NCBI RefSeq assembly: GCF_024298765.1
Contig: NZ_CP101210.1
Strand: one strand, 5' to 3'
DNA from: Escherichia coli
Lineage (GTDB): Bacteria > Pseudomonadota > Gammaproteobacteria > Enterobacterales > Enterobacteriaceae
Length of the DNA stretch: 64,000 nt
Shown: positions 30,001 to 36,000 of the stretch, in pieces
How positions within the stretch are numbered: the stretch's first letter is position 1
Layout: the number at the start of each line of letters is the position of its first letter
Made by a program: the position numbers

Positions 30001-33000
30001 ATTACCGTTTTAGATCTGATTATGAGCGAAAGCATTAATTCGCTCACAGAGCTTAAAACATCATTAACTTTCAGGAGTCATCAACATGCCTAAATCTTAC
30101 ACACCAAACTGGTTTTTTACCGCTTTACTTGACAATCACATCAATCAAATGATGGCACGCTATTCCTGCCTGCGGGCCTTACGGATGGATTTCTTCTACA
30201 GGAAGGATACGCCTGATTTCTTACAACCTGATCATCGTTGGCTTGAATTACAACTGCGTATGCTGCTGGAGCAGGTTGAACAGTTTGAAAATATGGTTGG
30301 CTTCTTCTGGGTGATTGAATGGACGGTTGATCATGGTTTTCATGCGCATGTGGTCTTCTGGCTCGATCGTCAGAGGGTTAAAAAAATATATCCCTTTGCG
30401 GAGCGGATTACGGAATGCTGGCGGTCTATTACGCATAACAGCGGTTCGGCACACCGCTGTACATATCAGCCGCATTATACATACAACATCAACATTCCTG
30501 TGCGCCACAACGATCCTGAAAGCATCGATAATATTCGCGGTGCCCTGCATTATCTGGCAAAAGAAGAGCAAAAAGACGGGCTGTGTGCCTACGGCTGCAA
30601 TGAAGTTCCTGAACGTCCTGCTGCAGGGCGTCCTCGTAAGCCTCACTTCTGAAGCTTAAATCCTGAGCTTCCTGTCCTGGAAACATTCCGTCGGTAAAAC
30701 CTTACCGCCTTGCTTAATGATGTGAACTGAAGTCAACGGAGATCATTCACTCTGAACCACATCCGGTGTTCTGTCCCTTGTCGGTGACCTGATCTTCCCG
30801 TTCTGCCCCGGTTCTTCACTTATTCCATCAACCCCATCCGCAAACCATAACACGTCAGCTTATTCACGGGCAGGACGCATTGTGGGCTGCGCATAACGGA
30901 GCATATCTTATGAATGCTATCCCTTATTTCGACTATAGCCTGGCCCCCTTCTGGCCATCTTATCAGAACAAAATCATCGGCGTTCTCAACCGTGTGTTGC
31001 GCGAGCAGTCCTGCTCCCGAATACGGCGGATCCTGCTTCGTCTGCCGGGGGAACATGGCAACATCTTCAGCGACAGAAAAACCTGGTTCGGTATGGCCTT
31101 TATCGAAACCGTCAGTGCGCTGATGAATGCAACACCCGGACGTGACCTCTGCTGGCTCCTGACACGTCATCCTGAAAAACCGGAATACCACGTGGTGCTG
31201 TGCGTCAGACAGGAGTATTTCGACGGCCCTGAACTGGATCGGCTGATTCTGGATGCCTGGAGCAACGTACTGGGCTTCGCATCACCGGGTGAAGCAGCAC
31301 CGTACCAGAAGCAGATCACCCGGGATGTGGTGCTGGACAGTTGTTCACCGGACTGCGAAGAGAGACTCAAAGAGCTGATATGGGCGTTCAGTGATTTCGC
31401 CCGCGATCGTCGTGGTGTGCGCGATCCGGAAGCCCGTTACCTCGCCGGTAATCCCTGGTATCCCGTAGCAGGCCAGCTCTGAAAGCTCAGCTCAGCAGAT
31501 TCACCCGCATTTGCCCAACATTCATAAATCTCACAGAGGACATTCTGACCATGTTGACCTCAATGACAGGTCACGACAGCGTATTGCTGCGTGCCGACGA
31601 TCCCCTGATCGACATGAACTACATCACCAGCTTCACTGGTATGACCGACAAATGGTTTTACAAGCTGATCAGTGAAGGCCATTTCCCTAAACCCATCAAA
31701 CTGGGGCGCAGCAGCCGCTGGTACAAAAGTGAAGTGGAGCAGTGGATGCAGCATCGAATCGAGGCATCACGAGGGGCAGCAGCATGAAACGTGTTGTAAT
31801 GCCGGTACGCTGGCAATGTGCAAAATACCAGCGTTGGTATTGTGGAAATCAGCCCTGTCCCTGGTGCTGGCGACATTTACGTTCATCTTCTTGCAGACAT
31901 TCTCCAGTCAGCCAGCAGGTTGTAGCTCTTCCTGACTGATTCGTCATTCCATTCTTATTGATTATAACTGGCATTACACCGGTGCTGGCGTGCTTTCCTG
32001 CGTGTCTGCACTGGCTTAACAAAATTCAACAGGGTTTGAAAAGGAACATTTCGTGCAAATAACCAAAGCCTTAATTTCAGAGCCGGGAGACATCCGGCGT
32101 TTTGTTCAGCAGGCGGTGGACCACTGGCCAAATCTGTTGGCATTTCACTTCACGCTCTATTCGGCAGAAGGAAACATCAACGGGCAACAGATTCATGCAT
32201 TCTGTACTTCCTTTTACCGACAGGTGCACGAACGTATTACTGAGCGTAATCACACGGCCAGCCCATCCTCGCCGGTGGTATTACGCTGGTTGCGGGAACA
32301 ACATGGAGGAGCAACAATACGATGCCTGTTGCTGTTCAGCCAGGAGCTTTTCTGCCATCCGCGAGCCAGTGTGACAGTTGATGAAGAATGTTCACAACTG
32401 GTGGATTTACTGCAACAGACCTGGTCGGTGATAAGTGCTGGCGGACAATGCCGGGTGGAAAGATGTTTTCAGGTCGTCCGGGGTGATACATCTGGCCAGT
32501 ATGTTGCGTTAAAAACAGTCGCATTGTCTCTGGGGTTACCGGTTGTGATCGCCATTACCCATCGTCCGGTACAGCGCTGTATATTGATTACAGCTCAGTG
32601 AATCAGCGCAGTTGTGCAGTCAACGAGGTTTTCTGGCTTTTCGTCGGTCATTCAGCACCATTAGCCGGGTCTCTGCCTCTTTCTGTTCCTGTGGAGTCAC
32701 TTCCCCGCACGGCTGCCCCTTCAGGTCATAACGGGCGCCGCCAGCCATTAACGCACGGTAATAGCGCGGAGACTGCACATAAGACGCTACTGCCGCGCGT
32801 AATGCACCTGCACCAAACGCCAGTTCTCTGATGGCGATATCCTGTATCAGGTCGTCAGTTATCCCCACTTTAAGCGGTTTTGGTTTTTCCCGGTTGAATA
32901 ACTCAGGCCAGAGTTCCACAAGACGATTTATACGCTTACGGTTTTTGCGCTGGCGTTTTGTCATATGTCGCCATGGTGTTTGATTCCTCACCCGAAGAAG

Positions 33001-36000
33001 CTTCTCGTTGTGTACTGTGTTCGTTTTATCCTGCAGCGGCGTTGCCGGTGATTTACTGAAAATACCCTGCGGTTTACGGTTAATGGTCAGCGTTACCATC
33101 AGTATTGTTACCTCGTGCTGTCAATGGAAGTGGTACCTCATCCGGTATCTGAAAATGTTTTCCGGTGGATGGCACAGCGAATGTCATGTAAGACATGCTG
33201 TTGCCGGTATTGTTCAGTGCTGTGCGTAGTGAGCGTATTCGTTATCAGACAGAGGGGCAGGGAACAAATGGCGTAAACGGGCATCAAAGAGCCAAAGAAA
33301 CAGTACAGGTCAGGCCGTTATGGTCTGCAAACAGAGTCCTGGCGCCCCCGGGACTGAAAACGAAACAATAACCCGCGCACAGTGCGAGGAGCCCGGGCGT
33401 GAAGCAATCAGCAGGTAATATTAATGGCAAGACCAGCAGGTTCTTTAAACAAACGAACAATATCAGCAAATACGACAACTCCCGGAGAGGTAAAAAGTTG
33501 TTCACTTGAGCACTTCTTAAAAAAATGGAGACGAACAAAAATAGGGCGACATACCTGGAAAGTATCGCTACCAGATGATGATAAAAAGCAGAAATAGTGT
33601 TCCAAGCCTGAAAGGGATGAGAATCAGTATCTGTGTGTATTTATAACATCTTCTTGAAGAGGCTGGAGATTGTTAGTCCATTAGTATAATCGATATTCGT
33701 GTTCCTGCGAATATACAGGCTACACCAGATATATGATTGCTACCGAATTTCATCAGTTTGATGAAATTACGCATCATACTGCGGGTTTTTCTCATTAACA
33801 TTAACGAAAGTGAATGGACTCAGACAAGTAGTGACCGGCGCAATTTCGCTAAGTATCAAATACAAAGATTCTGCGATAGCCTTTCCTTCGGAAAGGAAGT
33901 GACGATTAAGTACCGAAAAATGTGATACACATATTATTTTTATGGTGAATCACCTGATAGGATTTGCCATAAATGAATGAAAAGCTGAGTGTTAATAAAT
34001 GAGTAAGAAGAAAATTCCTTTTGAAAATGAAGAGTTCATTACTTACCGGGCATTACTTCTGAGTATTGACTTTGTTAAAAAACTGGTTATAGAAATGTCT
34101 GATGAAGATTTAAATAAGGTTAAGGAAAACTTTGACATAGCTATTCAGCAACGTAATGAGCGAAAGGAAAATATGAAAGCTATCAAATCACTCATGGATG
34201 AACATGGTATATCTCTGGAAGATTTTTATCGTGAATTTGGCAAAAAATCACAGGCAGGCAGAAAAAGTGTGTCAGGAGGGCATAAATACGAGTATGACGA
34301 TAACGGTAAAAGAATGTGCTGGAATGGGCAAGGACGTCGGCCTAAGGCCATAGCAGAGGCTATAAAAGCCGGAGGTTCTCTTGATGATTTTCTTATATCT
34401 CAGGAAGTATCATCTGGTCCTGATTATGAATAACAGCAATATATATTTTGATCTGTATTAATATCAAGGAATATATAGTAAACACTTCTCTGGAGTTGAT
34501 ATATTATCGGCAGGGAATGAAAATGCCTGACTTCATGCTAATATATGGCAATAAAGATAAATGAGTTATACTGTAGAGTTATGAAATAACGATAGTGATA
34601 AGAGCCAGTCAGCGAGACTGATTGTTTTATCTGTACTGGCAGCAGGCAGTTAACCATGGCTTACTGCTTCAGTTTCTGAATATGTGTTGATGATATTTAT
34701 CTGTTTATAAGGCAAGGCTTGTCTCTGTGAGTTGGTAATCTTTATCCCGGGATAGCTTTTCTCTGTATTTTTAGTATAGCCAGTAATCGATTACTCCAGT
34801 ATGCGCAAAAATATAGCAACTCATCCATGGTAAACATGTCAGCTTTTACCTACATATAGATAAATTCATATTTCTCGATATACGACCCAATTTTATTAAC
34901 ACGAGCTGTTACCCATACACCTGTCATCCCCTGCTTATGGTGACTGCGCAGGAACTCTTTATTTGTACAAAGTTGTATCCATCTGGAAGTGTTTTGATCT
35001 TTCAACCAGAGTCCCGCTTCACAATGTCCATATTTTCCTCTTGATGGTCCCGGAAAAACAACATCATATTCAGATTCATAGCTAATAACCTTATCCGGAA
35101 AAAGATAAATACAGACATCGTAATAGTTCAGACTCAGTATAAATCCAAGACAAAATCCCCCCGTGAATGCATTTAATAAATACTTTAATGTTCTGTTAAA
35201 GGTGCGGATATAAAATGCATAAATAAAAGAAAGAGCCCCGGTGATTATACCGGTGCAAAATATGTTGTCCATTCAGGTACCGTATTTTGTAAAACAGTAT
35301 AATGAGATATAGCGGATGCCCATAACATATACCAGCACAAACCACCTGTAATAAGATATGTTATTGCTGTGGAAAACCATTCCCTGTATTTATTTTCAGG
35401 GTAATTGTTCTTGCCCATCAACGTATTTCCAGAATATTTAAAATAACCTGTCACCGAAACGGAATAAAGGCGCAATAACCATAACGGGAAAATATGCGCC
35501 TCTGGTAATCGACAGTGTTACTTCAGACGGTGAGTTTCCCATTCCTTGACTGCAAATGTATCCATCATACCTGAAATATAGTCAACCACTGCTCGTTTTT
35601 TGCTGATTTCAAATATACAGGAATCTGGTTGGGGTAAGGTGAATTTAAGTTCAGGAGGCAGAAATTTATAATTCTCTCCTTCATTGTAAAAGTCATATAA
35701 ATCCCTGATTATTTTATTTCCCCTGAACTCATAGGTGAGGATATTACGTTTTCGCATGATGACTTTAAAGAGAAGTTTTTTGAGCCCTTCGGATAACGCA
35801 TTCAGTTTCCCGAATCCTAGCTCCTGAAAACCATTCAGGTTCGTTACTACAGAAATATCTGCAACGAGGCGATTGACAATATTTGAAGTTAACTCCTTGC
35901 GGAATATGATGGCAAATTCTTCTGAGGTTTTCAGTAAGTTAGCCTGAAAAGCGGTGTTTCTCGACTGAGTAACGATTTCCCTGAACTGTTCCCTCGCTCC

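Follow-up and report, generated by a model that had tools for sequence, protein, structure and literature searches.

A selC island with two copies of one gene module

Here we analyze a stretch of 64,000 nucleotides of Escherichia coli DNA (RefSeq assembly GCF_024298765.1, contig NZ_CP101210.1), hereafter the window, most of which belongs to a genomic island at selC, the tRNA-Sec gene. The island contains two copies of a module composed of a UCP030791-family gene, a convergent FinO/ProQ-family gene and a non-coding tail, and the copies bracket 25.6 kb of cargo (block A). The whole window is identical to positions 849863-913862 of NZ_CP029164.1, from the chicken isolate E. coli strain 104. Its leftmost 9.7 kb are core chromosome (uhpC...yicL), and the left island end is marked by a 16-nt repeat of the selC 3' region, immediately before a DUF4942 gene (Table 1). 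Next comes a CP4-44-like 'yee' module (DUF4942, CbtA/CbeA, JAB, antirestriction and GTPase genes), followed by a Gp2-like gene, the insertion sequence (IS) IS2, ireA, IS remnants, and the YagK/YfjJ-type, hypothetical and AlpA-family genes that lead into copy 1. Block A, copy 2 and a LacI/phosphotransferase system (PTS) region complete the window. The last of these opens a second cargo block (B) that continues for ~32 kb past the window end, through transketolases, a YadA-like adhesin, IS-rich blocks and an autotransporter, to a tyrosine recombinase (record positions 944833-946017, minus strand) and tRNA-Sec (946317-946411, minus strand), 32 kb to the right of the window. The genes yicJ and yicI come after the integrase and tRNA-Sec, and IS-rich cargo is present throughout the island.

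Internal attachment (att) sites were sought with every 12-mer from the 3' half of selC and its downstream spacer. Apart from the distal repeat, the window and 31 kb downstream gave just two isolated 12-mers as matches of at least 12 nt. The DNA from 10788 to beyond the window end is a single selC island of ~86 kb that has only one att repeat, integrase and tRNA. The LacI/PTS block belongs to the island cargo and not to the core chromosome, and copy 2 is therefore not located at an island/chromosome border. An initial reading of the window from sequence alone (the sequence-only reading) had placed the end of an AT-rich island at the LacI/PTS genes and had suggested, as one of two options, islands that each terminate in the module. 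Neither point was borne out: the GC fraction is lower in the LacI/PTS region (0.41-0.46) than in the pgt region left of copy 2 (0.48-0.50), and the module is internal.

Self-comparison of the window by BLAST returned a single long repeat (E = 0), whose plus-strand copies are 32053-33459 and 59143-60603. The only other self-match is an inverted pair of IS3-family fragments of ~770 nt and 65% identity (47631-48399 and 49569-50337), which flanks an IS30 copy in the IS cluster between fec and pgt. Global alignment of the module copies (1408 and 1461 nt) gave 1268 matches and 75 gap columns, corresponding to 90.8% identity at aligned positions, or 86.1% with gaps counted. The identity is even along the module, with 90.0% for the first open reading frame, 91.2% for the FinO-family gene and 91.1% for the tail. 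Both copies end at ...GGTTCTTTAAACAAACGAACA (also given as ...CAGGTTCTTTAAACAAACGAACA), and the 60 nt past this end are only 25% identical between them, which is the random level. Against other genomes, homology of copy 2 begins at 59102. Chance cannot account for a match of this quality over 1.4 kb, and the initial description of two segments about 90% identical with a common end sequence was accurate; its right ends (33462 and 60602) are correct to 1-2 nt, while its left ends (32100 and 59190) lie ~47 nt too far to the right.

Table 1. Coordinates of island features in the window.
Feature	Coordinates	Strand	Details
Distal att repeat, left island end	10788..10803		16-nt copy of selC 3' region, GATCACAGGAGTCGAA on + strand; probe search
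Backbone genes directly upstream of copy 1	30086..31787	+	Single-copy (not duplicated)
YagK/YfjJ-type protein	30086-30652	+	PF11726/PF23343, weak matches
Hypothetical protein	30910-31482	+	
AlpA-family regulator or excisionase-like protein	31551-31787	+	PF05930 at 2e-10
Copy 1, first open reading frame	32053..32601	+	Intact UCP030791-family protein, 182 aa; WP_065793218.1
Copy 1, FinO/ProQ-family gene	32620..33099	-	Intact, 159 aa; profile match
Crossover interval in the Res13-Lact-PER02-33 module	32636..32658		59721-59743 in copy 2; switch of informative sites
Copy 1, tail	33100..33460	-	361 nt upstream of FinO-family start codon; homology to copy 2 stops at 33459/33460
Cargo block A	33461..59101		25.6 kb, bracketed by the copies; RefSeq annotation and comparisons
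Left 8-mer	59094..59101	+	TGCTGTAA, abutting copy 2
Copy 2, upstream sequence and UCP030791-family reading frame	59102..59687	+	~40 nt of upstream sequence; frameshifted pseudogene (59143-59687)
Copy 2, FinO/ProQ-family pseudogene	59705..60216	-	Frameshifted; 100% identical to HS4
Copy 2, tail	60217..60603	-	30-nt insertion 60374-60403 relative to copy 1
Right 8-mer	60604..60611	+	TGCTGTAA, first bases of the LacI/PTS block
Cargo block B, start	60809..64000		LacI-family regulator (minus) and PTS IIA/IIB/IIC

Genes of the module

The first reading frame of the module had been taken as yagK-like, and RefSeq labels WP_065793218.1 as 'YagK/YfjJ domain-containing'. The sequence does not confirm this designation. 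No Pfam or NCBIfam family, PF11726 and PF23343 included, matched the first reading frame of either copy (32053-32601 and 59172-59687) at E<=0.01, in a profile scan where the genuine YagK/YfjJ members of the window score 1.8e-36 and 4.8e-05. BLASTP against these two proteins gave E values of 27-28, that is, no similarity, and homologues of the reading frame carry PF27752 (UCP030791) according to precomputed Pfam data. Structural modeling of the UCP030791 protein returned only a generic ferredoxin-like fold.

The second gene, convergent with the first across an 18-nt gap, is indeed FinO-like as originally proposed. Its product matches the FinO domain PF04352 over residues 53-157 with 85.8 bits (cut-off 27), and its relatives in the PDB are the ProQ N-terminal domain (5nb9, 3e-12), FinO (1dvo, 2e-11), NMB1681 and RocC. 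The ratio of non-synonymous to synonymous substitution rates (dN/dS) is 0.12-0.30 for the FinO gene against distant homologues and 0.16-0.83 among island copies, and 0.18-0.63 for the UCP030791 gene, values that indicate real yet weakly constrained genes. The tail of copy 1 is presumably the promoter and leader of the FinO-family gene. In copy 2, the 30-nt insertion at 60374-60403, absent from copy 1 and from strain HS4, is flanked by a direct repeat GGGAACAAA, consistent with slippage or deletion between short repeats.

A peptide-pattern scan of species-representative genomes recovered no relatives of the FinO-like gene. Homologues at 57-68% identity were found in contigs of E. coli, Salmonella salamae and Citrobacter braakii (loci L011-L019, gene at ~5001-5540), one of which (P0111) is indexed in ~4000 blocks of the contig collection. 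There, the gene is accompanied by Bro-N/AntA, DUF4222, a primase or helicase (DUF927, D5_N or AAA_25), single-stranded DNA-binding protein (SSB) and PerC genes, in the order Bro-N/AntA, DUF4222, primase or helicase, SSB, FinO, PerC, a setting that resembles the replication module of a phage satellite. It seems that the island-borne gene was recruited from satellite-like elements, or is common to both. The FinO domain is shared with the FinO/ProQ chaperones (F-plasmid FinO, ProQ, Legionella RocC, Neisseria NMB1681 and FopA). Unlike these, the gene described here resides on a chromosomal island, is often truncated or frameshifted, and no partner RNA was detected for it. Chromosomally integrated members of the family often erode (PMC9977716), which fits the many frameshifted and truncated forms among the island copies. 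We found a single paper with island-borne FinO-family genes, which lists them in a gene table alone (PMC6174562).

The module as island backbone

Outside the window, the module recurs in a fixed order: Gp2-like gene(s), a hypothetical gene, AlpA, UCP030791, the convergent FinO gene, tail, and then variable cargo. This order was seen in J-8, E66, HS4, W2-5, Res13-Lact-PER02-33 and IMT16316, as well as in four metagenome or NCBI contigs, and the cargo after the tail is an H-NS/dGTPase block, type VI secretion genes or LacI/PTS genes. The module is present in ~2980 of 5426 complete E. coli genomes, at a median of two and up to nine places each, ~5700 places in all. The plasmid collection yielded 11 records with the module, several of them mislabelled chromosome-sized records, and the search of phages gave no match. 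The module is an internal, conserved backbone segment that faces the cargo, not an island terminus. In W2-5 and Res13-Lact-PER02-33 (loci L008 and L009, ~9403-18400), IS1 and a resistance region with sul2, strAB or tet, floR and ISCR2 replace the LacI/PTS genes right after the module tail.

The island shares with CP4-57, CP4-6 and CP4-44 of K-12 (alpA-yfjI-yfjJ; yagK; yeeP...cbtA) an AlpA-family regulator, YagK/YfjJ (Gp2-like) genes and a GTPase, and the antirestriction, JAB/RadC-like, CbeA/CbtA and DUF4942 genes in the same order. Unlike in the K-12 islands, the AlpA segment points towards the cargo and integrase, divergent from the GTPase-CbtA segment. The K-12 islands are not known to carry the UCP030791/FinO pair, and K-12 is not known to have a family member besides ProQ.

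Block A comprises genes for an H-NS paralogue, a hypothetical pseudogene, a truncated dGTPase, a recombinase fragment, hlyE, an IS1 remnant and fecIRABCDE, and continues with an IS3/IS30/ISEc31/IS66 cluster, pgtP and pgtCBA. As the sequence-only reading anticipated, the copies bracket a discrete block, 33461-59101, which related islands carry or lack as one unit. Positions 40290-59246, which cover the 19-kb fec-pgt cargo and the first 145 nt of copy 2, are 99.86% identical to the leuX island of IMT16316, in which the module fragment is truncated by an IS21 remnant. Because of this identity, and because the leuX island of J-8 has the same pgtA|copy-2 junction (shared by IMT16316 also), block A and the partial module at its right end form a portable unit common to islands at different tRNA genes.

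The first gene past the tail of copy 1 (33999-34433) encodes an H-NS-family paralogue of 144 aa with N- and C-terminal H-NS domains; its adjacency to the tail is found in J-8 and IMT16316 too, and IMT16316 (locus L010, 4424-4522) has a second, partial H-NS fragment upstream of the backbone. Further on (35518-37783), hlyE, the gene of a ClyA-type haemolysin, adjoins the dGTPase, truncated to 762 nt versus 1233 nt in J-8 and IMT16316, and the recombinase fragment. In the same place IMT16316 has an IS3-family pseudogene and no hlyE, and J-8 a full-length dGTPase followed by an ShlB-family gene. From the gene content of these two strains, hlyE looks like a later insertion into block A.

Probable recombination through the module

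Another island at this site (yicL-setC ... tRNA-Sec) is that of HS4, which shares both the integrase protein (WP_001218900.1) and the right-hand blocks. The HS4 island measures ~51 kb versus ~86 kb here, carries one module, and lacks both the ireA block and block A. Relative to HS4, positions 22852-30666 (IS2, ireA, IS256 and IS3 remnants and a second Gp2-type gene) constitute a 7.8-kb insertion. From 59592 rightwards, copy 2 is identical to HS4 save for one substitution and the 30-nt indel, and to the left the identity is ~85%. That left part is of donor type, 99.9% identical to the leuX island of IMT16316 up to 59246 and 96% identical to the O157/O26/O145 allele. Judged from these alignments, copy 2 is a recombinant joint, in which block A meets a resident LacI-type module through homologous exchange within the UCP030791 gene. 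The HS4 gene itself has been interrupted by ISApl1 (locus L007, 13019-14087), and the insertion lies only a few bases from the transition between ~85% and 100% identity of HS4 to copy 2. ISApl1 is the IS associated with mcr-1 mobilisation.

Among the complete genomes, counted where at least 80% of query 58650-61000 was covered, 14 carry the pgtA-copy2-LacI arrangement at 100% identity and 87 more have the module and LacI without the pgtA flank. All but one of the 14 (13/14) also have the copy1/H-NS junction at 100%, and in the five two-junction genomes examined the spacing matches, two of these with an extra 2.6 kb. We found no description of this selC block order (13-14 complete genomes) in the accessible literature.

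A complementary architecture was recovered from Res13-Lact-PER02-33, a pig isolate from Quebec. Its left flank is 99.96% identical to 24892-31898 of the window, it has a single module, and an IS1/transketolase remnant comes after that module. The module is of copy 1 type up to 32636 and of copy 2 type from 32658 to the tail end, as judged from 239 informative sites with three exceptions. Thus, what separates the one- and two-module architectures is a segment with both ends at the same homologous point of the module, the signature of one crossover between the direct repeats or of its reverse. More generally, all pairwise comparisons of modules display a patchwork of 96-100% and ~85% identity, the pattern that would result if the many module copies of the species had repeatedly exchanged or converted one another.

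Taken together, we consider it probable that the copies serve as passive homology for recombination that adds, swaps and removes cargo, in an otherwise ordinary mosaic island; the support comes from sequence comparison. The two copies would then be diverged alleles of one conserved, non-autonomous backbone segment (UCP030791, the convergent FinO/ProQ gene and its upstream region), from a family spread over tRNA-associated E. coli islands with a P4-type integrase and CP4-like genes. Host homologous recombination in the copies, and in other shared backbone or IS sequences, would join cargo from islands at other tRNA sites, and the same process may patch-convert the copies. One crossover between the direct repeats could delete or re-insert the bracketed block. 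That the events were homologous recombination of the RecA type, and in which direction each gain or loss went, we infer. As in a Campbell-type single crossover between direct repeats, the Res13-Lact-PER02-33 and window states differ at the same homologous module point; unlike in the simple case, the repeats share only ~91% identity, with exact matches over long stretches.

Several observations weigh against this explanation. The Res13-Lact-PER02-33 island adjoins cadC, on the pheU side, and not selC, so that this strain is not simply an in-situ deletion derivative of the one studied here, and since the one- and two-module states lie at different tRNA sites at least one further transfer or exchange is needed. 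Its module has eight private substitutions at 32412-32464. The HS4 breakpoint (~59592) differs from that of Res13-Lact-PER02-33, which means more than one exchange. The donor junction for a Campbell-type insertion (pgtA, copy-2-left and copy-1-right, H-NS flank) occurs in 0 of 5426 genomes. Moreover, on its left side copy 2 meets pgtA-downstream DNA at 59102 in a non-homologous junction, which homologous recombination does not explain, and the pair of 8-mers abutting copy 2 looks like a target-site duplication, of which the homology model gives no account.

With respect to the sequence-only reading, the chimeric modules, the mosaic identity and the single-module relatives that lack the block support its alternative proposal that recombination mediated by the module assembled a composite island. 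Hence its bracketing of a block and its recombination through the module are supported, and its tandem accretion and terminal role of the module are not. A related strain with the same content and a single module, the case named there as contrary, was not found among the relatives; the single-module relatives are without the intervening block, which fits recombination.

Alternative origins of the two copies

We also considered whether two complete islands were integrated successively at selC, each with the module near one end, after which a deletion removed the inner distal backbone, the internal att and the second integrase and joined the copy 2 UCP030791 gene, on its 5' side, to pgtA-downstream DNA. 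We regard this as unlikely. The copies have the same orientation, each followed by cargo towards selC, the junction at 59102 is non-homologous as a deletion would leave it, and IMT16316 carries block A in a leuX island that is independent and has an integrase of its own, which implies that the block was once part of a separate island. Nevertheless, there is no internal selC-derived repeat of at least 12 nt between the blocks and no tyrosine integrase annotated by RefSeq in 33461-60603, where a 'recombinase family' pseudogene fragment of 273 nt (36272-36544) lies far from both block junctions. Tandem accretion, as initially suggested, is consequently not supported. The pgtA|copy-2 junction, being found in the leuX islands of J-8 and IMT16316, is also older than the arrangement at selC and did not arise there by deletion, and the turn of copy 2 to 100% HS4 type inside the UCP030791 gene is a homologous joint.

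The 8-mers raise a different scenario, in which a UCP030791-FinO-tail unit of 1.5 kb would be a small, non-autonomous mobile cassette that entered between the pgt and LacI blocks and duplicated an 8-bp target. TGCTGTAA adjoins copy 2 at either end with no base between, and the chance of this at fixed offsets is ~1.5e-5. There are E. coli islands in which homology to this region ends earlier, at 59038-59041. The predicted empty site is CCCGGGTACTGCTGTAATTGATATTTTGC, leading from pgtA-downstream DNA into the LacI block via one TGCTGTAA; it was found in none of 5426 E. coli genomes, and an exact match to the junction 29-mer is likewise missing from the species-representative collection. Terminal inverted repeats are missing: for neither copy does local alignment of the two ends score above shuffled controls. 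A flanking repeat is absent from copy 1, all other copies continue leftwards into AlpA, the end point of the tail varies by lineage, and HS4 has the right-hand 8-mer without the left one. In addition, neither the Pfam/NCBIfam scan nor structure comparison disclosed a transposase or recombinase encoded by the module, whose genes give a FinO-domain protein and a protein of generic fold, and thus no enzyme of its own for site-specific cuts. Such a cassette is accordingly highly improbable. The bolder version, in which the cassette was captured between cargo blocks and its FinO-family chaperone, convergent with the UCP030791 gene over the 18-nt gap, would provide antisense or RNA-based control of island genes as a chromosomal-island counterpart of plasmid FinO/FinP, is likewise very unlikely.

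The shared right end could instead represent a functional element that fixes where cargo attaches, for instance a site for recombination or a structured RNA that partners the FinO-family protein. Proteins of this family normally act with a cognate structured RNA (PMC9977716), and the tail ends at 60601-60603 in hundreds of genomes and at 33457-33459 in several. This recurrent end is, however, mostly one inherited junction: 127 genomes run from the tail into LacI, and in ~220 the tail is 100% identical and gives way to IS1 and a transketolase remnant, the product of an IS1-mediated loss of the LacI/PTS genes. The idea of many separate breaks at 60601-60603 was thereby rejected. Upstream of the FinO gene, homology to copy 1 extends to -29 nt in two contigs, to -160 nt in two others, to -360 nt in copy 2, to -466 nt in E66 and past -900 nt in J-8 and IMT16316, the last two lacking an internal 190 nt. 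As the homology stops at five different points by lineage, a fixed tail boundary is rejected. The tail folds no better than shuffled sequence on either strand (z-scores -0.11 and -0.75), gives no Rfam match even at E<=1, and is no better conserved than the coding parts. We hold it hardly probable, therefore, that a functional element sets this end. The sole Rfam match in the window at the gathering threshold is an ALIL frameshifting pseudoknot at 28018-28134, within a frameshifted IS3-family transposase. The possibility that the tail is a decayed gene was also rejected, as tblastn with primase, SSB, PerC and neighbour proteins of the satellite-type FinO loci matched the FinO gene alone and disclosed no remnant of the genes that precede FinO elsewhere.

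Finally, a recent in-situ segmental duplication of the module, as direct repeats in the same orientation within one island might suggest, is effectively excluded, since 9% of the aligned bases differ alongside several indels and the halves are closer to other genomes than to the sister copy (copy-2 right 100% to HS4, copy-2 left 99.9% to IMT16316, copy-1 patches 96-100% to E66 and J-8).

Relation to other islands and implications

Mosaic islands of this kind are known in related settings. The Shigella SRL island carries fec and is a related mosaic island. AGI-3 (Chouikha et al. 2006, cited in PMC3349570) is reported to be the selC island of avian pathogenic E. coli (APEC) BEN2908; its LacI-type cluster (aec-35 to aec-37) reportedly encodes a major facilitator superfamily transporter and a glycosidase, whereas the block here has PTS and transketolase genes. 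In the GI-pheV islands of E. coli, mosaic islands at a tRNA gene, the fec, pgt, ireA and yee modules have been gained, lost and exchanged by recombination and IS activity (PMC11537424). The selC island resembles these in its insertion at a tRNA 3' end, the adjacent tyrosine integrase, the short distal att repeat, and cargo modules (fec, pgt, ireA, yee/CP4-44-like) separated by IS elements. It is unlike them in that the bracketing homology is a 1.45-kb backbone gene pair, UCP030791 and the FinO-family gene, and not an IS.

The understanding of island evolution is unchanged by this case. What little is new lies in the 8-bp flank of copy 2 and in the island-borne FinO-family gene, for which nothing here shows a special role. 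The island rather provides a worked example of how large pathogenicity and fitness islands of E. coli may be built up and taken down, with cargo for iron uptake (fec, ireA), phosphoglycerate transport (pgt) and a toxin (hlyE) moving among islands at selC, at leuX and on the pheU side, and with conserved backbone genes, not IS elements only, as the homology that is used. This may assist the annotation and typing of such islands and the prediction of their unstable regions; for example, the 27 kb between the copies are expected to disappear at a measurable frequency.

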